From positions 6,585 to 70,584 of the forward strand of contig CAZJGC010000001.1 in assembly GCA_964545795.1 (NCBI GenBank): DNA of 64,000 nt, in the 5' to 3' direction. The notes below the pieces were generated by a model. It saw nothing but the letters and a program-made list of their open reading frames with translations. It had not been told where the DNA came from and did not search any database. Numbering within the stretch: the first letter of the stretch is position 1; each line of letters starts with the position of its first letter. Origin of the DNA: an uncultured archaeon. GTDB taxonomy: Archaea; Aenigmatarchaeota; Aenigmatarchaeia; Aenigmatarchaeales; DAIDAN01. The translations under genes were made by a program, and so were the position numbers. Shown one piece after another: positions 9-52,752 of this stretch.

Positions 9-2729
9 GTGCAGAGGCAGACAATAGAGAGAAAGAAAGACGGCTCAATTGTGATATCATTTGCTAACTTAAAGAGGCTGCCTGTTTTTGTTTTGCTGAA
101 GCTTCTTGGTATGGAATCCGATAAAGATATAATAGAAGCCGTGTCTGCAAATGTTCCTGAAGATGTCAAAGATAAGTTCCTTAACGAAATTTATTCTAAT
201 TTGTATGCTCTGGATGTTGCAACAAAGAGTGATGCTTATGAGTTTGTTGGAAAACACATGAAAATTATTCAAAAAGAGTATGTGAAAGAAAGAGTTGATG
301 CTTTATTGGACAGATACTGCGTTCCGCATCTCGGGCAGGAACAGAAAAATAGAAAGGAAAAAGCAATATATTTGGCAACTGCCGTAAGAAAACTTATTCT
401 TTTTGCTCTTAATAAAATTCCAAAAGATGACCTTGACCATTATACCAACAAAAGGCTTAAGACTTCAGGAAAACTTCTGGAGCTTTTGTTCAGGTCTATG
501 TTGATTGGAAGATGGGGTTTGATTGCAAGAGTAAATTATAACTATCAGAAACTTGCGAAAAGAGGCAAACTGCCTTCAGTGCAGACTATTGTTGAATCAA
601 ATGTTATAACAAATCAGTTAATATCTTCTATGGGGACAGGTTCATGGGTGGGAGGAAGAAGCGGCGTAAGCCAGAGGCTTGGTCGCGAAAATTTTGTATC
701 AGCCCTTTCGCATATCAGAACAGTAAGTTCTCCATTAACCTCAAGTCAGGAGCATTTTGAAGCAAGAGAACTTCATACAACGCAGTTTGGAAGATTATGC
801 CCTGCTGAAACTCCAGAAGGTCCTACAATAGGTCTTAGGAAATATATGGCTGCTCTTGCCGAGATTACAAGCGATATTTCTGAACTTGAAAAGAAGAAAA
901 TAATTTCTGCTTTAAAGGTTGCTCCTCATGGCAAAAAGCCTTGCGCAGTATTTGTTGACGGCACTCCAATCGGAAGCGTTGAAGACGGCGAAAGCCTTGC
1001 AGTTGAACTAAGAAACAAGAGGCGTGCGGGGCTGTTAAGCAAACTTATGAATGTTGCTTATTATCCGCATCTTAATGAATTGAGAATTAATACTGATGCA
1101 GGCAGATTAAGAAGACCGCTTGTGATAATAGACGGAGAACCAAAGTTAAAGCAGGAGCACATTGATAAAATAAAGGAAGGCATAATGTCATGGAATGATC
1201 TTATTGAAGGAGGCATAATAGAGTATCTGGATGCTGAAGAAGAAGAAAATGCTCTTGTATGCATTTCTGAGGAGTATCTTAACAAAGAGAAATATACTCA
1301 TATGGAAATTTCTTCCATGTCGCCTCTTGGTTTGTCGGCATCGCTTGTTCCTTTCCCGGAATACAACAGAGGAGACCGCGTAAACTATGGAGCAAAAATG
1401 ATGAAACAGTCTGTTGGTTTGTATGCTTCTAATTATTATTTAAGGAGCGATACAAAATCAAATATTCTTAATTATCCGCAGGTTCCTATAGTTGAAACAG
1501 AAACAGTTAATGCCGCAGGCATAACAAAACATCCTGCAGGGCAGAACGTTGTTATAGCAATTGTAACTTATCACGGGTATAATATGGAAGACGCTATTGT
1601 TATGAATAAGGCGTCTATAGAACGCGGTTTATTCAGGTCAACATTTTTCCGTTTCTATTCAGGAGAAGAGAAAAGGTATTGGGGTGGACAGGAAGATTTA
1701 ATATCAATACCTGATAAAGATGTTCGGGGTTATAGAAGCGAAGAAGCGTATGCTCATCTTGGAGAAGATGGCATAGTTAATCCTGAGCATAAAATAAAGG
1801 GAGGAGATGTATTGGTAGGAAGGACTTCTCCTTTAAGATTTGTAAGCGCCGATTCTGAACTCATGGCTGGCATAATAAATAGACGCGAAACTTCAATATG
1901 CATAAAGCATGGAGAAGAAGGCATAGTAGACAGAGTGTTTATTACAGAGTCAAAGGATGGAAACAAGCTTGTTAAGATATGCGTGAGAGATGAGAGAATA
2001 CCCGAAATTGGAGATAAGTTTGCTTCAAGGCACGGGCAAAAGGGCGTGATAGGTTTAATAGCAAATGAAGAAGACATGCCTTTCACAGCGAATGGCATTG
2101 TTCCTGACATTCTTATTAATCCTCATAGTTTTCCTTCAAGGCAAACTGTTGGTCAACTTTTGGAAACTCTCGGAGGCAAGGCGGCAGCGGTTTCAGGAAG
2201 AAAAGTGAATGCATCTGCATTTATAGGCGCAAATGAAAATGAGTTAAGGGAAATTCTTAAGCAGGCTGGTTTCAGGAGTGATGGAAAGGAAATAATGTAT
2301 TCAGGAGTTACAGGAGAAAAATTTGAGGTTGAGATATTTGTTGGTGTAACATATTATCAGAAACTTTATCATATGGTGGCTGACAAAATACAGGCTCGGG
2401 CAAGAGGGCCTGTTACTTTGCTTACAAAACAGCCGACAGAAGGGCGTGCAAAGGAGGGAGGATTAAGGCTCGGGGAAATGGAAAAGGATTGTTTAATTGC
2501 TCATGGCGCTGTTCTGGCTTTGAAGGAGAGATTCAGTTCAGACAAGGTAGTAGTTCCTGTGTGCAAGGAGTGTGGGTTAGTGGCAATGAAAAATAAATTA
2601 AAAAACAAGCATGTTTGTCCTTTGTGCAAGTCCTCAGAAATCGTGCACGTTGAAGCCGCTTATGCATTTAAACTTTTGCTTGATGAACTCAGAACCATGC
2701 TGATATATCCAAAACTTAATGTTGAATAG
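9..2729 (+). CDS. rpoB: DNA-directed RNA polymerase subunit B (C-terminal part / B'); 5' end lies outside the window
   Basis: 906-aa ORF open at the window edge. It carries the conserved RpoB C-terminal region (GDKFASRHGQKG, the C-terminal Zn-binding CxxC...CxxC) and is followed directly by rpoA1 and rpoA2 in the canonical archaeal order. Confidence 0.9.
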   Translation: MQRQTIERKKDGSIVISFANLKRLPVFVLLKLLGMESDKDIIEAVSANVPEDVKDKFLNEIYSNLYALDVATKSDAYEFVGKHMKIIQKEYVKERVDALLDRYCVPHLGQEQKNRKEKAIYLATAVRKLILFALNKIPKDDLDHYTNKRLKTSGKLLELLFRSMLIGRWGLIARVNYNYQKLAKRGKLPSVQTIVESNVITNQLISSMGTGSWVGGRSGVSQRLGRENFVSALSHIRTVSSPLTSSQEHFEARELHTTQFGRLCPAETPEGPTIGLRKYMAALAEITSDISELEKKKIISALKVAPHGKKPCAVFVDGTPIGSVEDGESLAVELRNKRRAGLLSKLMNVAYYPHLNELRINTDAGRLRRPLVIIDGEPKLKQEHIDKIKEGIMSWNDLIEGGIIEYLDAEEEENALVCISEEYLNKEKYTHMEISSMSPLGLSASLVPFPEYNRGDRVNYGAKMMKQSVGLYASNYYLRSDTKSNILNYPQVPIVETETVNAAGITKHPAGQNVVIAIVTYHGYNMEDAIVMNKASIERGLFRSTFFRFYSGEEKRYWGGQEDLISIPDKDVRGYRSEEAYAHLGEDGIVNPEHKIKGGDVLVGRTSPLRFVSADSELMAGIINRRETSICIKHGEEGIVDRVFITESKDGNKLVKICVRDERIPEIGDKFASRHGQKGVIGLIANEEDMPFTANGIVPDILINPHSFPSRQTVGQLLETLGGKAAAVSGRKVNASAFIGANENELREILKQAGFRSDGKEIMYSGVTGEKFEVEIFVGVTYYQKLYHMVADKIQARARGPVTLLTKQPTEGRAKEGGLRLGEMEKDCLIAHGAVLALKERFSSDKVVVPVCKECGLVAMKNKLKNKHVCPLCKSSEIVHVEAAYAFKLLLDELRTMLIYPKLNVE

Positions 2730-5225: not shown

Positions 5226-6376
5226 TGATTGTTATGAGTGAAGAAAATATTAAACAGGAAATTGAGTTGCCTCCAAAGATACTGAAAGATATTGAAAAGG
5301 TGTTTAGTGAATTAAAGCCAAGCGAGGCTCAGAAAAAGAAGATAATTGAGAGAGTAAAAGAAGTATATAAGAAGTCTTTATATGAACCGGGAGAAGCCAT
5401 AGGAATTGTAACAGCTCAAAGCATTTCAGAACCGGGCACTCAGATGACAATGAGGAGTTATCATCTTGCAGGCGCGGTTGAGATTAAAGTAACGCAGGGT
5501 TTGCCAAGGCTTATAGAAATTTTTGACGCCAGAAAAACTCCAACAACCCCTACAATGACAATCTACTTGAAGAAGGAGTATAATTCAATGAAAGATGCAA
5601 AACGCCTTGTGGCTAAAATACGCGAAACAAGATTGGGTGATATTCTTGAAAATTCTTCAATAGATATTGTAAATATGACAATAGAATTTGTTTTGTCTGA
5701 AAAGAAGATGAAGGATATTTCAATAACCAGAGAGCATCTTGTTGAGAAGCTTAAAGAAATAAAAAATATAAGTATATCTAACAGGGCAAAGTCCATAGTA
5801 GTAAAGCCGAAAACGGAAATGTCAATAAAAGAACTTCAGAAGTTGAAATTTAAAATAATGGAGACATATATAAAAGGAGTTAAAGGAATTGAACAGGGAA
5901 TTGTTCATGAGGAAGATAATGAATGGGTTATAAAAACTTTGGGAAGCAACCTGAAGGAGATAATCAAATTTAAGGAAGTTGACTGCAAGAGAATTGCGAC
6001 AAACAACATTTTTGAAATATTGGATGTTTTTGGAGTTGAAGCCGCGCGTTCCGCCATAGTGAATGAAACAATGAAGACATTGAAAGACCAGGGTCTTAAT
6101 GTTGACATAAGGCATATTTTGCTTCTGGCTGATTTAATGACAGTGGACGGCACAATTATGTCTATAGGAAGGTATGGATTGGCAGGGTCAAAAGGTTCTG
6201 TTCTTGCAAGGGCTAATTTTGAAGAGACAATAAAGCATCTTATAGGTGCATCTGTTGTCGGAGAAGTTGACAGGTTGAACAGTGTAGTTGAAAATGTAAT
6301 GATAAACCAGGTAGTGCCTATAGGCACAGGCATGTTTGACCTTATTTATCAGCCAAAGAAAAAGAAAAGAATTTAA
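5225..6376 (+). CDS. rpoA2: DNA-directed RNA polymerase subunit A''
   Basis: 383 aa. Overlaps the rpoA1 stop and continues the Rpb1 C-terminal homology (trigger-loop region [12 protein letters not shown]...). Confidence 0.88.
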
Positions 6377-6409
6377 ATATTGATTTTAATAAGAAATAAA
6401 GTGATTTTA

Positions 6410-6685
6410 ATGAATGCGAGCGATATATCTTCAGAAATAAAAACAGCTCTTGCTGAGAATAAGGCTGTTATAGGTGCAAATTCTGTAAAGAAGATGCTTA
6501 GAGCAGGCAGACTTAAGGTTGTTGTTCTTGCATCAAATTGCCCTGAAAATATTAAGGATGACATTATGCACTATTCTAAATTAGCGGCGGCAAAGGTAGA
6601 AAACTTTGAGTCCACAGGAAAAGAGCTTGGTATAATCTGCGGAAAACCCTTTTCAATAGCTGTTCTTGGAATAAGGCAGAGTTGA
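6410..6685 (+). CDS. rpl30e: 50S ribosomal protein L30e
   Basis: Typical L30e sequence (LRAGRLKVVVLASNCPENIKDDI). Placed after rpoA2 as in archaeal rpo operons. The longest ORF starts at 6380; the internal Met at 6410 fits family length better. Confidence 0.8.
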   Translation: MNASDISSEIKTALAENKAVIGANSVKKMLRAGRLKVVVLASNCPENIKDDIMHYSKLAAAKVENFESTGKELGIICGKPFSIAVLGIRQS

Positions 6686-6689
6686 TGAT

Positions 6690-7088
6690 ATGAGAATTTT
6701 TGACACAAATACAATAAAAGTTATATCTGCTTTTGAGAAATTAACTCGTTCTGAAGTAAGGGATTGCATAATTAATGAGAATTCAATTTATTTTCTTGTT
6801 AATAAAGGAAAAATGGGGCTTACTATAGGCAAGGGCGGAAAGACAATTAAGTCAGCGGAAAAATTATTTAAGAAGCAGATAAAAGTTTTTGAATATTCTC
6901 CTGATCAGGAGGAGTTTGTAAAAAATCTTATGCCTCAGGCAAGCAAAATAGAAATTAAAGGAAGCAAAGTTGTTGTGTCTGCTGGAAACAAACGCGGAAT
7001 ATTGATAGGCAAGAACGGTTTAAATATAAAATGCATAAAAATACTGTTGGAGCGCAATTCCGATATAAAAAAACTTGAAGTTAAATAG
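6690..7088 (+). CDS. nusA: NusA-like transcription termination/antitermination factor (two KH domains)
   Basis: 132 aa with two GxxG KH-type motifs (GKGGKTIK, GKNGLNIK). Archaeal NusA position after L30e. Confidence 0.8.
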   Translation: MRIFDTNTIKVISAFEKLTRSEVRDCIINENSIYFLVNKGKMGLTIGKGGKTIKSAEKLFKKQIKVFEYSPDQEEFVKNLMPQASKIEIKGSKVVVSAGNKRGILIGKNGLNIKCIKILLERNSDIKKLEVK

Positions 7089-7097
7089 ATAAGAAAA

Positions 7098-8303
7098 TTA
7101 CTTTTTAAGCTTTGAAAAGTTAAATTCCTTGATAAATTTGTCTATTTCTGATTCATTTACATAAGAAAGATTTTCCATTGCCGAATGTTCAAATTTTTTT
7201 GCAAATAATTCTGAAGGCAGCCATTGCCACATATCATATTTCCCTAATTTTAATGTGCATAAGTCAATCCAATATTCATTAGATGTATTAATTCCTTCTT
7301 TTTCACATATTTCCCTTGCTTGTTTATTTAATTTTTCATTCATGCCGGGAATGCTGTCTGCATACGAGTGTCCTGCTTCATGCGCTAATACTCTGATAAT
7401 GTTTTTAACATAGTTATTGTTGACGGGCTCAACCGTTTCTACATTTATAGCAACTATACCGTCTTTAAAGTATGCTCCACTAACTGGCAAGTATCTCAAT
7501 GAAAAATCTTTGGATTTTGCAAATATTGTTTTTGTATTATTTCGTATAAACTCGTAATCAGGCGGGCTGTATTTCTTTGCAAATTCAAAAGCCATGACAA
7601 TTTTTTCCTGAAAATACTCTGGGCCTTCTATTTTTATTCCATTATAGTTGATAGGTTCAGCGAATGTTTTTAGGAAATTTTCATCTCTTTTCGCTTGTCT
7701 GGATTTGACCTCTATTTCAGTTTCAGCAACGCTAATTTTGCCTTTGTCATCTTTCACATTAAGTATTATGTGATAAGTACGAAACCATGGAGCGTTTTTT
7801 AATACCGGAATTCTTTTCTTGAATATAGGACTTGTCGTAACCTCTGCTTCAGATTTTTTATTTAACTCGGGAATATACCAACTATATTCAACTATTTCTC
7901 CGTCAGGATCATAACTTTTGCTTGCATTAAACACAAATGTTTCTCCTTCAACCCAATCCAAAGGAGCATCTATCTTTATTTTAGCAACAGGTGGTTCGTT
8001 TGATAAATTTTGGTAAGTTAAGTTGTCTGTCTTCGCAGGAGTATTAGAAGTATTGTTTGATTTATAAATTTCATACATTTCATTAATTTTTGAAATATTG
8101 TTAGCAGTGATAGGAGGAGCAGTAGGGACCGACATCAAAATTTCAGATTTTGCATTTTCTATTTTATGGTCAACAGAATCTGCAAAATCTTTATTGTATT
8201 CATTAACCCCAATTGCCCCTGCATAAGCAGTTAATAAAGCAGCTGCGCTCAAATATGGATGTTTCTCTATCCAGTTAATTGCTTTGCCAAGAAGCCGGAA
8301 CAT
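7098..8303 (-). CDS. membrane-anchored PKD-domain protein with C-terminal HEXXH (zinc metallopeptidase-like) motif
   Basis: 401 aa. N-terminal hydrophobic anchor, a PKD-like segment (FNASKSYDPDGEIVEYSWYIPE) and LAHEAGHSY near the C-terminus. Paralogous to the adjacent gene. Confidence 0.65.
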   Translation of the reverse strand: MFRLLGKAINWIEKHPYLSAAALLTAYAGAIGVNEYNKDFADSVDHKIENAKSEILMSVPTAPPITANNISKINEMYEIYKSNNTSNTPAKTDNLTYQNLSNEPPVAKIKIDAPLDWVEGETFVFNASKSYDPDGEIVEYSWYIPELNKKSEAEVTTSPIFKKRIPVLKNAPWFRTYHIILNVKDDKGKISVAETEIEVKSRQAKRDENFLKTFAEPINYNGIKIEGPEYFQEKIVMAFEFAKKYSPPDYEFIRNNTKTIFAKSKDFSLRYLPVSGAYFKDGIVAINVETVEPVNNNYVKNIIRVLAHEAGHSYADSIPGMNEKLNKQAREICEKEGINTSNEYWIDLCTLKLGKYDMWQWLPSELFAKKFEHSAMENLSYVNESEIDKFIKEFNFSKLKK

Positions 8304-11434: not shown

Positions 11435-11803
11435 CTATTTCAGTTTTTCATATAATTTGTCCACAGTTCTTTTGTCAATTCTTTTTCCAAAACATTTATG
11501 CGGCACAAGAGCCCCTGAGAAAGTTTTTGGTATATGCAAAAGTTCATGTATAAGGGTTTTGTCCTGCTGTTCTTTGTTAAATGAGTCAAATCTTTCTGAC
11601 AAAACTTCTATTATATAGTGGGGTTCTATGGAAAGGGCTTTCTGCCATATTTTTGGGAATGACCATATTCTTGCGTTTGCTTTGCTTTTTGAGTTGTAAG
11701 AACGAAAGCATATTATTTTGCCAGGGTCTATGTGTTTAAATTCAAGTTTTTGTATAATTTCTTCAATTCTTTTTTTAATATCTTCTGCCAACTCAAGTTT
11801 CAT
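11435..11803 (-). CDS. putative metal-dependent hydrolase (HEXXH; COG1451/SprT-like)
   Basis: The internal Met at 11803 avoids overlap with rpl15p. HELLH motif near the C-terminus. The longer 183-aa ORF overlaps the L15 start and is unlikely to be real. Confidence 0.5.
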   Translation of the reverse strand: MKLELAEDIKKRIEEIIQKLEFKHIDPGKIICFRSYNSKSKANARIWSFPKIWQKALSIEPHYIIEVLSERFDSFNKEQQDKTLIHELLHIPKTFSGALVPHKCFGKRIDKRTVDKLYEKLK

Positions 11804-11908
11804 GATATTAAATGGGTGTAAGAAAGATTTATAAACGTTGTTTCTAAATGATAGCAATAAAAGAATATAAATATAAAAATTCATTGAATCTAAAAACAGG
11901 TGAAAGAT

Positions 11909-12316
11909 ATGACGGCAAGATTCAGAAAGAAAACAAGCAGGCAGCGCGGCAGCAAAACTCATGGCTGGGGCGCTAAGAAAAAGCATCGCGGAGCAGGTTC
12001 CAGAGGAGGTCGCGGTCAGGCAGGGTTAATGAAGCATAAAAAATCATGGATGATTAAAAATGACCCAAATCATTTTGGAAGAATTGGATTCAAGAAACCT
12101 GAAAGGAAAAAACCTTGCAGCATAAATCTTATAGAACTTGACAGCATGGAAGGCAATGAATTTGATTTGAGAAAATTAGGTTATGACAAGCTTCTTTCAA
12201 GAGGCAATATAACGCGGCCAATTACAGTAACTGTAGAGAGCGCAACTCCCAAGGCAATAGAGAAAATAGAAAAGGCTGGAGGAAAGGTTGTAATTCTTGA
12301 CAGCGTTCAGGAATAA
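11909..12316 (+). CDS. rpl15: 50S ribosomal protein L15 (uL15)
   Basis: Basic Gly-rich N-terminus (GRGQAGLMKHKK). An AGGTGA RBS-like sequence lies upstream of the ATG at 11909. Followed by secY, the conserved spc-operon tail order. Confidence 0.85.
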   Translation: MTARFRKKTSRQRGSKTHGWGAKKKHRGAGSRGGRGQAGLMKHKKSWMIKNDPNHFGRIGFKKPERKKPCSINLIELDSMEGNEFDLRKLGYDKLLSRGNITRPITVTVESATPKAIEKIEKAGGKVVILDSVQE

Positions 12317-12326
12317 GGGATGATGT

Positions 12327-13835
12327 ATGTTTGATTTGACAAGTATTTCAGAAAAACTTCCGACAGTTGTAAAGCCTGTTTCTAAACTAACTTTTAGAGA
12401 CAAACTGAAATGGACATTTCTTATTCTTATATTTTATTTCATTCTTGGCTCAATTCTTGTTTATGGGGTAAATCCTGAAGCTGTGGCGCAGTTTGAGTTT
12501 ATGGAAATTGTGTTTGGTTCAAAATTCGGTTCGCTTCTGACTCTTGGTATTGGACCAATAGTTACTGCTTCCATTATTCTTCAGTTGCTTGTTGGAAGCA
12601 AAATAATTGATTGGGATATTCATGGAAAAGACAAAGCAAAGTTTGCAGGCACGCAGAAAATTCTTGCTGTCTTGTTTTGTTTTTTTGAGGCAATAGCATT
12701 TGTTGTTGCAGGCGCTGTTCCTCCATCAAGCCCTGCATTCGCGCTTCTTGTTATACTGCAACTTGCGGCAGGGGGAATAATAGTTATTTTCATGGATGAA
12801 GTCTGCAGCAAATGGGGGTTTGGTTCTGGAATATCTCTTTTTATAGCCGCAGGAGTTTCAAAGACAATATTCCTTAGGACATTTGCCATACCATTGGGCG
12901 CAGAAGGCAGCGGCGGTGTTATATCTACTTTCATATTGAATTTGGCAGGCGGGCAACCTTTGGCAGGTTTTGAAGCGCTTATGCCATTGATTGCAACAAT
13001 TTTTGTTTTTGTGATAGTTGTTTTCTCGCAGGCAATGAAGGTTGAAATACCAATGGCTTTTTCCGTGCCGTTTGGAAAGTTTGCATCAAGAAGGTGGCCT
13101 TTAAAATTCATATATGCAAGCAACATACCTGTAATACTTGTGGCTGCTGTTCTTGCCAATGTGCAAATTCTTGGAAGCGTTCTTGCGTCCCGCGGAATAA
13201 CGCTTCTTGGCGAGTTTGATGAAAACAAACATGCCATAAACGGCATTGCATATTTGTTAACTCCCCCGCATTCTCTTAGTTTGACAATTATGGTAATGTT
13301 TGCAGGCGTGTTTGCAGTTGCTTTTGTTTATATGGCTTCGCGGTTCTGGAGAAAATATGCATTGCGTTCTTCTGTTATTGGAGCAGCAATAGGAATAATG
13401 TTCGCATTGATTTTAATGAAAGCCGTAAACCTTCCTAATGTAACTCTGCCAACATCTTCTGACGGATTCAGGGCTTTGATCTATATGCTTGTTATGGTGT
13501 TTGGTTCAATTATATTTTCAATATTTTGGGTAAATACTGCAGGAATGGATGCGCACACAGTTGCGGAACAGTTTAAGTCTGCGAATCTAATGATACCGGG
13601 ATTCAGGCGCGACCCAAGAATAATAGAGTCTGTGCTTGGAAAATATATTCCGGCTTTGTCTGTATTGGGTGGCGCGTTTGTTGGTTTTCTGGCAGGTTTT
13701 GCGGATTTGACAGGCGCGTTGGGTTCAGGAACAGGTATATTGCTGGCTGTTATGATAATTTATCAGTTTTATGAAAATATTATGCGCGAGCATGGTCATG
13801 AAATGCCTGAATTCGTAAGAAGAATTGCCAAGTAA
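12327..13835 (+). CDS. secY: preprotein translocase subunit SecY
   Basis: 502 aa, 10-TM pattern, conserved SecY plug/TM2 region. Position between L15 and adk. Confidence 0.9.
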   Translation: MFDLTSISEKLPTVVKPVSKLTFRDKLKWTFLILIFYFILGSILVYGVNPEAVAQFEFMEIVFGSKFGSLLTLGIGPIVTASIILQLLVGSKIIDWDIHGKDKAKFAGTQKILAVLFCFFEAIAFVVAGAVPPSSPAFALLVILQLAAGGIIVIFMDEVCSKWGFGSGISLFIAAGVSKTIFLRTFAIPLGAEGSGGVISTFILNLAGGQPLAGFEALMPLIATIFVFVIVVFSQAMKVEIPMAFSVPFGKFASRRWPLKFIYASNIPVILVAAVLANVQILGSVLASRGITLLGEFDENKHAINGIAYLLTPPHSLSLTIMVMFAGVFAVAFVYMASRFWRKYALRSSVIGAAIGIMFALILMKAVNLPNVTLPTSSDGFRALIYMLVMVFGSIIFSIFWVNTAGMDAHTVAEQFKSANLMIPGFRRDPRIIESVLGKYIPALSVLGGAFVGFLAGFADLTGALGSGTGILLAVMIIYQFYENIMREHGHEMPEFVRRIAK

Positions 13836-13872
13836 AAGTAAACTTTATAAAAGTTGTAGTTAATTAATAATT

Positions 13873-14553
13873 ATGACAGTAAAAATAATATTTTTGGGTC
13901 CGCCCGGAGTTGGCAAAGGGACATGCGCTTCCAGAATATCCGAAAAATTAGGAATTCCGCATATTTCTGCAGGAGACATGCTCCGCGCAGAGGTTGCGGC
14001 TGAAACCGAAATTGGAAAAAAAGTAAAAGATATTTTAGACAAAGGAAACCTTGTTCCAGACGAACTTGTTTTGGATGTGGTAAAGAAAAGAATTTCAAAA
14101 CAGGATTGCGAAAATGGTTTTGTTTTGGATGGTTTTCCGCGCACAATAGGACAGGCAGAAGGTCTTGAAAAAATAACGAATATAGACATAGTAATAAATT
14201 TAACTCAGCCGGAAGATGTTCTTATTGAGCGCATACTTGCAAGAAGGACATGCAAAAACTGCGGAAACAGTTATAATATTGCCGATATACGAAGAGATGG
14301 CATTAACATGCCGCCTCTTTTGCCAAAGGTTGAAGGAATTTGCGATAAGTGCGGAGGCGAACTTGTCAAACGTTCTGACGAAACACCGGAAATCATTGCA
14401 AACAGGATGAAAGTTTATAGAGAGCAGACAGAACCTTTAATAGAGTTTTACAAGAATAAGAATATTCTGGTAGATGTGTTTGTTGATTCAGTTCCTTCAG
14501 AAATGGTTGAAAAGATATATAACATGTTAAAAGAGAAATCTCTTGTTGGTTGA
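13873..14553 (+). CDS. adk: adenylate kinase (zinc-lid type)
   Basis: P-loop GPPGVGKGT and the lid Zn motif CKNCGNSY...CDKCGG. Confidence 0.9.
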   Translation: MTVKIIFLGPPGVGKGTCASRISEKLGIPHISAGDMLRAEVAAETEIGKKVKDILDKGNLVPDELVLDVVKKRISKQDCENGFVLDGFPRTIGQAEGLEKITNIDIVINLTQPEDVLIERILARRTCKNCGNSYNIADIRRDGINMPPLLPKVEGICDKCGGELVKRSDETPEIIANRMKVYREQTEPLIEFYKNKNILVDVFVDSVPSEMVEKIYNMLKEKSLVG

Positions 14554-34865: not shown

Positions 34866-35285
34866 ATGTTTGCTGTGATAAGATTGAGAAGCGGTATAGG
34901 CATGAAGAAAGAAATAGAAGATACTTTGAAAATGTTGCGTCTGCACAGGAAGCATCACTGCGTTCTTTTAAAGAATTCTCCTTCTATTCTTGGCATGCTT
35001 CAGAAGGTAAAAGACTATGTTACATGGGGGGAGATTTCAGATGAAATGCTTGCAAAACTTGTTGAGAAGCGCGGCAGAAAGCCGGGGAACGTAAGATTGA
35101 CCAAAGAAGAGGCAGAAACTGCAGTTAATGAAATAAAAACTTCTGGAAAACCTTCTTCAATAAAACCTGTTTTCAGGTTGTCTCCTCCAAGCAAAGGCTT
35201 CAAATCAATAAAACAGCATTATCCAAAAGGAGATTTGGGATATAGAAAGGACAAAATAAATGATTTGCTGAAAAGAATGATATAG
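34866..35285 (+). CDS. rpl30: 50S ribosomal protein L30 (uL30)
   Basis: MFAVIRLRSG start. Normally followed by L15-secY, which here lie 23 kb upstream. Confidence 0.85.
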   Translation: MFAVIRLRSGIGMKKEIEDTLKMLRLHRKHHCVLLKNSPSILGMLQKVKDYVTWGEISDEMLAKLVEKRGRKPGNVRLTKEEAETAVNEIKTSGKPSSIKPVFRLSPPSKGFKSIKQHYPKGDLGYRKDKINDLLKRMI

Positions 35286-35660
35286 AGATTTTTATATTTT
35301 GTGCAATAATATTGATAAGCAATGCAACAAAAATTATTGCTCTTATTTCCGCTTCTTGTAATAATATAAATTATAAACAAGTAAACAGGACTGTTTAATA
35401 ATAAGCTCGAGTTGAGCATTAAAAACATTCTTGAATACGACTATAATGCCAAGCACGCAACCAGCAGCCACTAAAGAACACTTTTATTACTTCATCCATA
35501 TATATTTGGGTTTCTTTATTTATAGGTCTTAATTTACAGACGAAATGATAGACGTTAATTAAAACAAACTCTGGGACGGCGGGAACCGGCGAAATTCTTA
35601 ATAAAATAAGGAGGGGTTGCTTTTAATAATATCCTGCGAAGCAGACAATGTGTCCGAAGG

Positions 35661-35676
35661 ACTAAGGGCGGGCGTC
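35661..35676. repeat. left terminal inverted repeat of R-M cassette (CTAAGGGCGGGCGTCC)
   Basis: GC-rich 16-mer. Its reverse complement matches 37635-37650 at 13/16 ungapped or 15/16 with one gap. A related GGGACGGCGGGAACC copy lies at 35574-35588. Confidence 0.4.
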
Positions 35677-35741
35677 CGATAAATAAAAAACGAAAGCTTT
35701 ATAATAAAGCTTACATATACTTATTTAAGGAGGTTGTAAAA

Positions 35742-35978
35742 ATGTATCCTGATATAAAAAAACAGAAACATACCTCACTAATTATAGAAGTCCTAAAAGA
35801 AAATTCAAAAATTAGGAGAGGGGACTTGTATAAAGAAGTTATGAAAAAGCAAAAACAGAAATATGGAAAAACGACTACCTACCAAGTGATAAGCAGAGAT
35901 ATTGAGAGGCTTTTAAAGAAAAAAATAATAAAGGTTATTAGTGGGGGTCCTCGTTCGCAGATATTGAGTTTAAGATAA
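35742..35978 (+). CDS. small winged-helix DNA-binding protein (possible R-M controller)
   Basis: 78 aa, basic; wHTH-like. Confidence 0.5.
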   Translation: MYPDIKKQKHTSLIIEVLKENSKIRRGDLYKEVMKKQKQKYGKTTTYQVISRDIERLLKKKIIKVISGGPRSQILSLR

Positions 35979-35990
35979 GTAGATGATAAA

Positions 35991-36182
35991 ATGAGCCAAG
36001 AAGATGTGTTAAATATTTTGAAAGATTTAAAAGGGGAAGCCACTAGTAAGCAGATAAGAGAGATTGCAAAAAAGAGATTCCCTTATAGAACTCTTTATCT
36101 CTATGTTAATAATCGCTTAAAGAAATTGGAGAAAAATAAAAAAGTTAAAAAGGAAGGAGAAAAATGGAAGATAATACAATAA
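35991..36182 (+). CDS. small winged-helix DNA-binding protein (paralog of the upstream gene)
   Basis: 63 aa; overlaps the MTase start. Confidence 0.5.
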   Translation: MSQEDVLNILKDLKGEATSKQIREIAKKRFPYRTLYLYVNNRLKKLEKNKKVKKEGEKWKIIQ

Positions 36183-36946
36183 AAAATCTGTTAGAAAAAT
36201 ATCATATTAAAGATATGGGTAGTTGGGAAAATGTTAATGCAGATTTAATTATTACTGATCCACCATTTGGAATAGAATTTAGTGGTAAAAATGGAAACTA
36301 TCACAGAAATGGAGATAATGTAGTTGATGGATATGTTGAATGGAAAGTTGAAGAATACGCAGATAAAATAAGGCAATTATTAGAAACTATTAAAAAGAAT
36401 CTAAAAGAAAATGGACAATCTTTAATCTTCTCTGGTTGGAACAATAGCAATATCATTCATAATGAAATTTTAAAATTTAAAGGATTAACATTAAGGGGCA
36501 AAATGTATTGGGCTTATAATTTTGCTCCTGCGTGTAAATTAAGACCTGCTCATAATGTTTATGAAATCTTTTGGGTAACAAAAGGGGAAAAATGGCATTA
36601 TCATAAAAGATGCTCCACGATACACTGCGATAAAGGAGAACCAAATTTAACAACACTGATATTTAAAAGAGATTATAAAATGAATATGCCAAAATATCCT
36701 ACGAGATTACCATTTAAGCTGCTTCAATGTCTTTTAGAACATTTTTCAAACGAAAAAGATTTGATATTTGACCCTCTTGCTGGGAGTGGAATGTTGGGCG
36801 TTGTCGCTTATATGCTTAAGAGAAACTTTTTATTAGGGGATTTAAATAAAAATGGTAAAATTGTTTTTAAAGCATTATTAGATTATTATTTAAATAAAAA
36901 TGGTCTTGCTCAAGATCAAAAATTAATGACTTGGTGGAAAAAATGA
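36164..36946 (+). CDS. DNA methyltransferase, beta-class amino-MTase (N4-C or N6-A)
   Basis: Motif IV DPPF (IITDPPFG) precedes motif I (FDPLAGSGM). This permuted order is typical of beta-class MTases. Confidence 0.8.
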   Translation: MEDNTIKNLLEKYHIKDMGSWENVNADLIITDPPFGIEFSGKNGNYHRNGDNVVDGYVEWKVEEYADKIRQLLETIKKNLKENGQSLIFSGWNNSNIIHNEILKFKGLTLRGKMYWAYNFAPACKLRPAHNVYEIFWVTKGEKWHYHKRCSTIHCDKGEPNLTTLIFKRDYKMNMPKYPTRLPFKLLQCLLEHFSNEKDLIFDPLAGSGMLGVVAYMLKRNFLLGDLNKNGKIVFKALLDYYLNKNGLAQDQKLMTWWKK

Positions 36947-37632
36947 AGAAAGAAGAATTTTTGAAAATTGCAAAAGAAATTGCAGAAGGATTTAAAGATA
37001 TTCCTACATTATGGGACGGAAGAAAATCTATTTTAGAAATGAAAGAAGCAGGGTTTCCTCATTGGAGGCAAATGGAATGGATTGGTTGGTATTTTCAATT
37101 TTTGTGTGAAAAATTATTAAAAGATAAATTAGAAATACCAGGACCCAAATATGGTAATGTTGAATTTGATGGATTTAAAGTAATTCCTTGGGATTTTAAA
37201 GCTCATGCAATAAATACAAGCAGTCATAAAATCATTGTTAATGATAGTGAAGCAACATCAAAAGGTATTAAAGAATTTGGAAGTGTTGGACTAATCTTGG
37301 CCATGGGAGAAGTAAAATATAATGATGATGAGAGGACTTTTCAAAAATGGCATGAAGAATTAAAAGGCGGTAAATCTAAATATGAACTAGAAAGAATTAA
37401 AAGAGGAGCTTGGTCTAGATTAAGAAAAGTTGAATTTAAATTAGAGCAGATTTCTTTTATAAAAATAGATGATTCTGTTTTAGTTAAATGTGGCTCATTT
37501 CAAAGAGATTTTAGAAACTCTAATGGAACTCCAAGACGAGAAAAAGTTTTATTAGATTTAGAAAAATTAGATGAAGAAATTGTGTTTTTCTTAGATTTTA
37601 AACCAAAATCAAACCAGAAGAAGTTAAAATAA
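36931..37632 (+). CDS. putative restriction endonuclease partner of the MTase (hypothetical)
   Basis: 233 aa; overlaps the MTase stop by 16 nt (operonic). Possible PD-(D/E)xK-like D...DFK residues, not confirmed. Confidence 0.4.
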   Translation: MVEKMKKEEFLKIAKEIAEGFKDIPTLWDGRKSILEMKEAGFPHWRQMEWIGWYFQFLCEKLLKDKLEIPGPKYGNVEFDGFKVIPWDFKAHAINTSSHKIIVNDSEATSKGIKEFGSVGLILAMGEVKYNDDERTFQKWHEELKGGKSKYELERIKRGAWSRLRKVEFKLEQISFIKIDDSVLVKCGSFQRDFRNSNGTPRREKVLLDLEKLDEEIVFFLDFKPKSNQKKLK

Positions 37633-37634
37633 AA

Positions 37635-37650
37635 GGACGCCGCCCGTTAG
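37635..37650. repeat. right terminal inverted repeat of R-M cassette (GGACGCCGCCCGTTAG)
   Basis: Inverted copy of 35661-35676, 2 nt after the nuclease stop. Confidence 0.4.
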
Positions 37651-37946
37651 AAAAATCTTTGGGTAAGCATTGTGAACCGCTTAACCAATGTTAGATAAAG
37701 TTGCGAAGCAATTTTATTTTTTCTCTTTTGTTTTGTTGAGGTTAAGCGAAGGATTTTTCTTTTGATAAAGCAACCCCTCAATTTAGGGGTGGGTGGTGGG
37801 GGTTTTAGAGTTCGTTCTAACTTCTCCGTTCGTTCCACTCACTACGACCCTTTGAGATGCGCCAAAACTCCTTTTAAGGCATAAGATAGAAAAAATATTT
37901 ATAAAATTCTACTGAATATTTATCATTAAGAGAGGTTGAAATATAG

Positions 37947-38810
37947 ATGATAGACAAAAAGATTGAAAAAAACAAATCACAAATAAAAGAAACTATAATT
38001 TGTTTAATTTGTGTTATAATTTTCTTTGTTTTAATATATTATTTATATATTTTACTGTGTCCATTAATATTGTTTTCTTCTGTTACTGTTTCATTTCTTG
38101 TAATTATGTTTTATGAATTAATAAGAAACAAACTATATAAAAAACAATATCATAATGCTAACATTATTTTTTCATATCTGTTTCTGTTATCTTCTTTAAT
38201 ATTATTTGTTTCAATCTTATTTTTGTCTTTTCCAAATCAACCAGAAGGAAGAAATCTTACTCATCAGAATGTAAGTTTTGATATTTATATTATAAACCAT
38301 ATTTTCACAAAAGAGGATGTATTTAATTATATAAAAGAAGCAAACAAAATTTGGAATAAATATAATATTTCAATTTTGGCAGATGACATTTATTTTAAAG
38401 ATATTAATCTTTCTCGCGAGGAGATACAATACTTGTTTACAAAAGTAAATAATTCTAAGGAAGAGAATGAAGAATGTATAGAATATTTGCATATTCTTTC
38501 TAAATTTGTTAATAACGATAAAAAACTAAAAATTATTTTTTTAGATAATTTAGGAAGTAATATAAGGGGAAGGGGTTGTCTTTGTGGTTGTAGTTTTGCA
38601 ATAGTTGCTCCAGATAAATTATTTACTGATTTTACAGGGTGGGATCTTGCACACGAAATAGGGCATATATTGAATCTATATGATATTAATGAAAATATTA
38701 AAATGAATCTGATGAACAATCGACATAAACCTTTGTTTTTAAAATCAGATTATTTGTCGCAAGAGCAAGTTAACAACGTAACTAAAAAGGCTATAAGTTT
38801 GAACACATGA
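37947..38810 (+). CDS. membrane-anchored putative zinc metallopeptidase (HEXXH)
   Basis: Two N-terminal TM helices and a DLAHEIGHIL motif. Confidence 0.55.
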   Translation: MIDKKIEKNKSQIKETIICLICVIIFFVLIYYLYILLCPLILFSSVTVSFLVIMFYELIRNKLYKKQYHNANIIFSYLFLLSSLILFVSILFLSFPNQPEGRNLTHQNVSFDIYIINHIFTKEDVFNYIKEANKIWNKYNISILADDIYFKDINLSREEIQYLFTKVNNSKEENEECIEYLHILSKFVNNDKKLKIIFLDNLGSNIRGRGCLCGCSFAIVAPDKLFTDFTGWDLAHEIGHILNLYDINENIKMNLMNNRHKPLFLKSDYLSQEQVNNVTKKAISLNT

Positions 38811-52474: not shown

Positions 52475-52752
52475 AGCAGGAGAATAGACCGGGTTGTTCG
52501 GCGTAACCTGTAACCCGAAATCGTCGTTATGCGGGGGTCGAAGTCTGGGAGCGCTTGCAGAAGTCTGTGAAGGCCTGCAATTCAACTGAGAAGCTTCGTC
52601 TTCTGGAGCTGTGGCTATAGTGAACCGACCCAGGTCCGGAAGGAAGCAAGTCTAATCTATAGTTACGGCGTTCAGAAGGTTGCGGAGTGGAGGCGAGTTG
52701 CAGGACTACCTTCGCAGGTTTTTGCCGGCAATCTCAGATGCTTCTCCTGCTA
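52475..52752 (+). ncRNA. ffs: signal recognition particle RNA (7S/SRP RNA)
   Basis: ORF-free, GC-rich ~280-nt island. It contains the universally conserved domain-IV motif CCAGGUCCGGAAGGAAGCA. A terminal helix closes it (5' GCAGGAGAA pairs with 3' UUCUCCUGC). Confidence 0.7.

Follow-up and report, generated by a model that had tools for sequence, protein, structure and literature searches.

Inverted copies of a non-coding element around a probable acquired Type II restriction-modification operon in an Aenigmatarchaeota genome

The window analysed here is a 64,000-nucleotide stretch of contig CAZJGC010000001.1 from an uncultured archaeon of the Aenigmatarchaeota, in which the ribosomal protein gene uL30 is followed by a four-gene cassette and not by the usual uL15-SecY-Adk genes. 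The probable explanation, held with reservations, is that the cassette is an acquired Type II restriction-modification operon lying between head-to-head copies, X' and X, of an Aenigmatarchaeota non-coding element of ~0.2 kb. The original prediction, made from the letters alone, had described a mobile restriction-modification cassette that was bounded by GC-rich 16-bp inverted repeats and had split the ribosomal protein operon. The repeats and the foreign module are borne out by the analysis, whereas the repeats are better assigned to the X'/X pair than to the ends of the cassette and the splitting of the operon by the cassette is not upheld.

Direct reading and a mismatch search both recovered the inverted near-copies, the right arm GGACGCCGCCCGTTAG at 37635-37650 and the left arm CTAAGGGCGGGCGTCC at 35662-35677, the latter one base away from the 35661-35676 first given for it. 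The reverse complement of GGACGCCGCCCGTTAG differs from 35662-35677 at three positions when aligned without gaps, or alternatively matches it over 15 bp with two 1-nt bulges. Only 0.03 matches of the arm type are expected in the window and none of 100 shuffles gave two, in keeping with the earlier view that a chance origin is very unlikely. The third GC block of the earlier description is present at 35574-35588 and is G-rich, and a further perfect 13-nt inverted repeat (35611-35623 and 37767-37779) was found that had not been listed.

The right arm and the 13-nt block at 37767-37779 both lie within X, a nearly complete copy of a conserved non-coding element at 37635-37821 on the + strand (nhmmer E 6.6e-41 against an 11-copy profile). 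Copies of X are ~190-215 nt long and were found on 12 contigs in total: the window, two short contigs with close cassettes on which the arms and flanks also occur (L095, endonuclease 97% identical; L096, 83%) and nine more that were retrieved from Joint Genome Institute (JGI) metagenomes by scanning for two conserved blocks of the right flank. None of these nine carries this cassette and two of their contigs were shown to be from Aenigmatarchaeota. Pairwise identity among copies ranges from 66 to 95% and defines two subtypes; the window copy is 89% identical to that in locus L098 and has a shorter 3' end than the other copies, the 3' boundary of the element being sharp, at CCTAACA. X is regarded as non-coding because its indels are not multiples of three and a 63-aa minus-strand open reading frame (ORF) of the window copy is not conserved; the candidate that X is a coding remnant was rejected, as this ORF is not kept in frame in other copies. 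The right 16-mer block corresponds to a GC-rich segment, S, which has an A-rich TATA-like motif on one side and AGAAAAATC, the conserved start of X, on the other. In L098 the S segment reads GGACGCCCGCCCGTTAG and there are no restriction-modification genes, only a promoter-like AT-rich stretch and a divergent gene upstream, and the remaining copies have the variant GCCCCTGCCCGTTTCGTCAG in place of GGACGCCCGCCCGTTAG. Because X carries the arm without the cassette in L098, the right 16-mer is assigned to X itself, as its native 5' edge. In both subtypes, the one in the window and L095 and the other in L096, the cassette joins X at the identical position.

The left flank holds X', an inverted and internally deleted copy of X at 35546-35677 on the - strand. 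A gapped local alignment to the L098 copy scored 110.6, against 71.5 +/- 6.4 for shuffles (maximum 88.9; ~6 standard deviations), and blastn-short gave three collinear minus-strand matches that were confined to this 130-nt stretch. X' comprises the left 16-mer (35662-35677), the 13-nt block (35611-35623), the 'third GC block' (35574-35588) and a 3'-terminal block (35546-35573), ~100 nt having been lost from its centre. On the minus strand its block GGACGCCCGCCC-TTAG is collinear with X, CGCAGGATAT aligns to CGAAGGATTT of X, AAAGCAACCCCTC matches X at 13/13 positions and CAGAGTTTGTTTTAATTAACGTCTATCA aligns to CAGAGTTCGTTTTAATTACGCCTAACA of L098; in a motif search the 3'-terminal motif of X had its only minus-strand occurrence at X'. 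X' also retains features of the L098 copy that the window X has lost, namely the extra C in GGACGCCCGCCC and the TTTTAATTA..CTA.CA 3' end, and the X'/X pair is therefore old and not an assembly artefact. These alignments place the 16-mers, the 13-mer and the third GC block within a single head-to-head X'/X pair that has the cassette in its middle. A ~60-nt inverted remnant of X' is fused directly to X in L097, where there is no cassette and both the G-rich arm and the 13-nt block are missing. The L095 contig, of 2154 bp, has both of its ends within 0-3 nt of the 13-nt inverted block (GAGGGGTTGC / GCAACCCCTC), which suggests that its outer X'/X were long near-identical inverted repeats that broke the assembly.

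All four bracketed ORFs were confirmed as two small proteins, a beta-class methyltransferase and an overlapping putative nuclease. The first (35742-35978, + strand) encodes a 78-aa winged-helix protein, the presumed controller, whose AlphaFold model (pLDDT 82.7) has as its best folds the F93 winged helix of Sulfolobus turreted icosahedral virus (STIV), the cullin WHB domain, RosR and Fur (template modelling (TM) score 0.62-0.74). The second (35991-36182, + strand) encodes a 63-aa protein that is possibly winged-helix, its match to Pfam BLACT_WH being weak (E 0.053), so that the earlier assignment of both small proteins to this fold stands for the first and is weakly supported for the second. 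A homologue of the 78-aa protein is present in the related cassette of locus L117, where the 63-aa protein is absent; the latter is kept in L095. The third gene (36164-36946, + strand) encodes a 260-aa beta-class N6-adenine DNA methyltransferase (Pfam N6_N4_Mtase, E 1.8e-23) with a DPPF motif and matches to NCBIfam adenine methyltransferase models, and its nearest solved relatives are DpnA-type adenine methylases (PDB 5hek, E 1.7e-10). Its stop codon overlaps, as ATGA, the start of the fourth gene (36943-37632, + strand), a putative Type II restriction endonuclease of 229 aa from the ATG at 36943; the length of 233 aa given before counts from an upstream TTG, while the overlap with the methylase was correctly seen. 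This protein has no sequence matches in Pfam, NCBIfam or PDB. An alignment of its homologues revealed an invariant D76 ... D84-x-K86, and with its AlphaFold model (pLDDT 76.8) the top Foldseek matches were BglI, EcoRV, SfiI and HincII, and also DpnI, all of them weak (E 0.007-0.9, TM ~0.3). It is likely, from the model and the motif, to be a PD-(D/E)XK-type endonuclease.

A perfect 19-bp palindrome, AAGCTTTATAATAAAGCTT, was read directly over a TATA-like box at 35694-35712, ~30 nt upstream of the first cassette gene. It is kept in L095 and a related repeated motif occurs in L117, and it is presumed to be the operator and promoter of the cassette. The four genes are read as the operon of a Type II restriction-modification system that was imported and has a controller-like regulator. 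Binding of the palindrome by one or both winged-helix proteins would delay the endonuclease until the methylase has been expressed, and the module may act as both a defence and an addiction system.

The foreign origin of the cassette is indicated by the low GC content at third codon positions (GC3) of the methylase (0.195) and endonuclease (0.157) compared with 0.31-0.36 for host genes. Homologues of the endonuclease number 1601, and the best 120 of these, from which all identities and sources were taken, are 77-97% identical and come from both bacteria and archaea, including Aenigmatarchaeota, Altiarchaeales, Paceibacterota, Omnitrophica and Elusimicrobiales. An N6_N4 methylase lies directly upstream in all of the sampled homologue loci with readable upstream sequence, and the methylase-endonuclease pairs occur in quite different neighbourhoods among the sampled loci; versions of the pair from Paceibacterota carry an HTH_3 regulator. 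In L083 (~2870-2960) the pair is directly downstream of a tRNA gene on a bacterial-looking contig with MotA, TPR and L28 genes upstream. In L117 and L118 the unit of winged-helix protein, methylase and endonuclease sits between 47-bp direct repeats of host sequence that are 98% identical (116-162 and 1997-2043 of L117), with no mobility gene present. No flanking direct repeat of >30 bp was found around the window cassette.

The arms are absent around most homologous cassettes: in L117 there are the direct repeats instead, and in L083-L094 and L106-L116 there are none. Together with the arm sequence found in L098 without restriction-modification genes, this goes part of the way to what the original prediction had itself named as grounds for giving up the 16-mers as cassette ends, and the candidate explanation that the flanks travel with the cassette was rejected as false for most homologous cassettes. 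The L117 cassette ends in GTCCTGCCCCTCATTAAGAAAAAAT, which is the S segment of X, yet there is no X there. The simplest reading is that an ancestor of L117 once adjoined an X and took the edge of X along with it. The comparison of these loci shows that the cassette moves independently of X, and the view of it as a foreign and mobile module gains from the low GC3, the many homologues and the occurrence between direct repeats elsewhere.

An acquired operon between X' and X would be accounted for if mobile and defence genes land repeatedly at the 5' edge of X. Recombination at this edge would have brought in the cassette, and the X'/X pair would make the 2.3-kb segment resemble a composite transposon without a transposase. 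Mobile or defence genes are found beside X in eight of the 12 loci, the neighbours being four restriction-modification systems, an IS5-like element, an HNH gene, a HEPN-like gene and a tyrosine recombinase. The IS5-like element (L103, 187-1500; DDE_Tnp_1) has 26-nt terminal inverted repeats at 187-212 and 1475-1500 and ends 25 nt before X, and the recombinase, in L098, is a 265-aa member of the generic Phage_integrase family. On the 759-kb contig of L101 an N6_N4 plus RAMA methylase and a 287-aa gene (5472-7421) are divergent from X and just upstream of it; the same contig has a tRNA gene with a 50-nt intron at 759-878 (- strand).

Several observations weigh against this explanation. A substantial X' is seen at the window only, L095 showing just the inner part before the contig is cut. 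Inspection at 35546 and 37821 revealed no target-site duplication outside X'/X, and the window segment encodes neither a transposase nor an integrase. The structural matches of the endonuclease model are weak, as stated above, and X is modestly structured at best, with a fold z-score of -1.8 against shuffles and slight covariation (3/50 pairs). Since the 3' end of the L117 cassette carries S without X, S could belong to the cassette rather than to X.

The nature of X itself allows two interpretations, both of which fit: X may be a resident small RNA gene that attracts insertions at its promoter-proximal edge, or it may be the conserved end of a mobile element that is not autonomous. An A-rich TATA-like motif is found ~10-25 nt upstream of AGAAAAATC, ~22-25 nt in most cases, in all loci but L101, where there is only a TATAAT string directly before a variant start of X; AGAAAAAUC is ~24 nt downstream of the A-rich box. 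G-U pairs in the predicted fold of X favour the + strand. In five loci (L100, L102, L103 at 1757-1960, L104 and L105) X is extended by a three-way junction, Y, the closing helix of which covaries (GCGATTAA / GGGCTTAA / GCCGTTAA) with compensatory changes at 7/20 pairs in the five sequences. Beyond Y is a further GC-rich region, Z, and triloop hairpins of the types C(GAA)G and U(GCA)A are abundant in both Y and Z. Neither the flanks nor X-Y-Z matched Rfam 15 at the gathering score or at E <= 10, except for a chance 20-nt resemblance to a MAT2A hairpin. There is a slight leaning towards a resident small RNA gene, on account of the single copy in each locus (X' and the L097 remnant aside), the promoter-like motif and the lack of terminal repeats or target duplications. 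It is also conjectured, though as something rather unlikely, that X with optional Y and Z is an undescribed structured element of Aenigmatarchaeota whose 5' edge captures defence and mobile genes, serving as a capture platform or as a transposon end of which inverted pairs mobilise cargo.

The alternative that survives best, possible but on balance doubted, is that X is a non-autonomous mobile element, either resembling a miniature inverted-repeat transposable element (MITE) or forming the end of an unknown transposon, and that X'-cargo-X in the window is a genuine composite transposon, moved in trans. It would fit the two inverted copies in the window, the 12 different contexts of X, its sharp 3' boundary and the four contigs that stop in or close to X, as is usual where an assembly meets a repeat. 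The X copies of the window and L095 are moreover 87% identical, which is hardly above the 80-85% at third codon positions. However, X has no terminal inverted repeats or target duplications of its own, a TATA-like motif precedes it in all but one of the loci, and only one X is present per locus apart from the window X' and the L097 remnant, including 12 kb of the 759-kb contig. The identities among copies fit vertical descent within the phylum equally well, and X was absent from the viral contigs, phage records and plasmid records that were searched.

Less probable still is that X' and X together make up a single structured non-coding RNA gene, which would fold as a long, imperfect hairpin of nested helices with the cassette in its apical loop, so that the arms are an RNA helix. 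When joined, the flanks do fold into nested long-range helices (-126.8 kcal/mol for 384 nt), and in L095, where the right arm has changed to GGACTGTCCGCCC and the left arm has not, G-U pairs on the + strand preserve the pairing of the two. The strand preference of G-U pairs in X, the compensatory changes in the neighbouring Y and the direct joining of the X' remnant to X in L097 point the same way. Two inverted copies would, however, be expected to give just these helices, which coincide exactly with the collinear blocks of homology. At its 3' terminus X' has a block that resembles the 3' end of X (28 nt), a likeness that a need for pairing alone would not require, and pairing does not explain why X' is closer to the L098 variant than to its own partner. 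In ten of the 12 X loci the locus sequence contains no left partner, L097, which has no cassette, is without the G-rich arm and the 13-nt block, and there is neither a bulge-helix-bulge motif nor a match to an Rfam family. The weakest alternative, that a self-contained mobile cassette has the 16-bp repeats as its terminal inverted repeats and split the operon on insertion, draws on the close bracketing of a foreign and mobile cassette and on known transposon-like restriction-modification units with inverted repeats (Furuta, Abe and Kobayashi 2010, PMC2853133), but is largely refuted and very improbable given the right arm without a cassette in L098, the homologous cassettes without arms, the inverted homology that runs ~130 nt past the 16-mers and the position of the displaced uL15 block.

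That block, uL15-SecY-Adk, is at 11900-14553 on the + strand (Pfam Ribosomal_L27A, SecY and ADK), and uL30 (34866-35285, + strand; Pfam Ribosomal_L30, E 8.8e-19) is the last ribosomal protein gene before the break, as had been noted previously. Among 80 related DPANN loci, nearly all have uL15 and/or SecY after uL30, usually both and mostly with Adk as well, so the break in the window is real. A single small unrelated ORF (NUDIX-like, small membrane proteins and others) lies between uL30 and uL15 in L001, L002, L006, L009, L016, L020, L021, L027 and L066, and the junction thus seems to tolerate insertions across DPANN. A simple insertion cannot yield the window arrangement, because the uL15 block is 23 kb upstream of the break on the same strand, and no uL15 remnant is present at either breakpoint. 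The claim that the cassette split the operon is accordingly not sustained; judged from gene order the break would be a separate rearrangement, of which the island marks one breakpoint. At the other breakpoint a putative phage metallopeptidase gene (11435-11986, - strand; Pfam E 1.4e-23) abuts the displaced uL15 start.

None of the 80 relatives has X after uL30 and all are too distant to be used as a true empty site. Exact searches with uL30 and with the 287-aa protein encoded downstream of X returned only the source contig and one contig of the same arrangement, JGI contig Ga0256751_1000025 being among these records, with no cassette-free strain, and in the nearest relative of L097 the orthologous ACS locus has no X, synteny not being kept there. 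The 287-aa gene (37947-38810, + strand) has a GC content of 0.236 and a GC3 of 0.177, and its product has a weak Peptidase_M10 match, an HExxH motif and N-terminal membrane segments; it may be a further acquired gene of the same island. Elsewhere in the window an archaeal signal recognition particle (SRP) RNA gene is present at 52477-52749 (Rfam RF01857, 171.6 bits), and the host uS5 is 60-72% identical to that of Aenigmatarchaeota metagenome-assembled genomes.

A number of other candidates for X and its flanks were considered and rejected. A split RNase P or other known RNA gene has no Rfam match and no GGAAAGUCC-type motif, and the CR-V-like ACAGCGAAACCGCUUAAC of X is wrongly ordered. Archaeal bulge-helix-bulge motifs consist of two 3-nt bulges on opposite strands with a 4-bp helix between them, whereas the arm bulges are of 1 nt, 6 bp apart and on the wrong sides, each being 3' of the central helix, which speaks against a bulge-helix-bulge intron or a Nanoarchaeum-style split gene. 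A circularly permuted X-Y-Z RNA, proposed from the L103 Z and the window left flank, gave an unconvincing alignment and an inverted X explains the flank better. The end of an IS200/605-type element with an omega-RNA was dismissed, as no TnpB or IscB was found among the scanned neighbouring genes.

Comparison with known systems gives a mixture of likeness and difference. The regulators of controller (C-protein) Type II systems such as PvuII, BamHI and Esp1396I are of the Xre-type helix-turn-helix kind. The window operon shares with these systems the small DNA-binding protein or proteins first in the operon, a palindrome at the promoter and overlapping downstream genes, but its presumed regulators would be winged-helix proteins, two in number, and the palindrome to which they may bind is placed on an archaeal TATA box. 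Some genomic islands are anchored at tRNA or tmRNA genes. X is like these in being a small conserved non-coding locus with varied mobile and defence genes and, at L098, a tyrosine recombinase; it differs in that it is not a tRNA, belongs to no Rfam family, has its cargo on the 5' side and shows no direct att repeats. Integron attC sites form an R''-L''...L'-R' hairpin of 57-141 nt and occur in arrays of sites with IntI nearby. The GCTTAAC-CAAT-GTTAGRY string and the GCCTAAC end of X resemble the L'/R' and R'' boxes, and cargo ORFs end at the edge of the element. In contrast to attC, the box order of X is non-nested, its length is ~200 nt, its sequence is conserved and there is a single site per locus with no arrays and no IntI; the wrong box order and the lack of arrays led to the rejection of X as an attC site or integron.

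The closest parallel is with the transposon-like restriction-modification units flanked by long inverted repeats that were described in PMC2853133. As in the window, these have no internal transposase, their inverted repeats are also found elsewhere and they are inserted among housekeeping genes. The window unit differs in that its repeats are an Aenigmatarchaeota-specific non-coding element and not fragments of insertion sequences (IS), that one copy is heavily deleted, that no short target duplication was found and that the host is a DPANN archaeon. The same paper describes restriction-modification insertion with long target duplication, of 46 bp in Haemophilus influenzae; this class is matched by L117 and L118, with their 47-bp direct repeat of host sequence and no mobility gene, but not by the window.

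The bracketed cassette as a whole is a transposon-like restriction-modification unit of a known kind and a clear example of one in a DPANN archaeon. Mobile units of this type framed by inverted repeats have already been described in bacteria, and the more useful finding is X. If X is an RNA gene it would be an unannotated one in a poorly known phylum, and if it is the end of a mobile element it would point to an unknown mechanism of mobilisation. The GC-rich inverted blocks around such cassettes may be sequence of the landing site and not of the cassette. Endonucleases that are ~80% identical in bacteria of the candidate phyla radiation (CPR), Omnitrophica, Elusimicrobia and Altiarchaeales speak of recent cross-domain traffic in defence modules among ultra-small, episymbiotic lineages.

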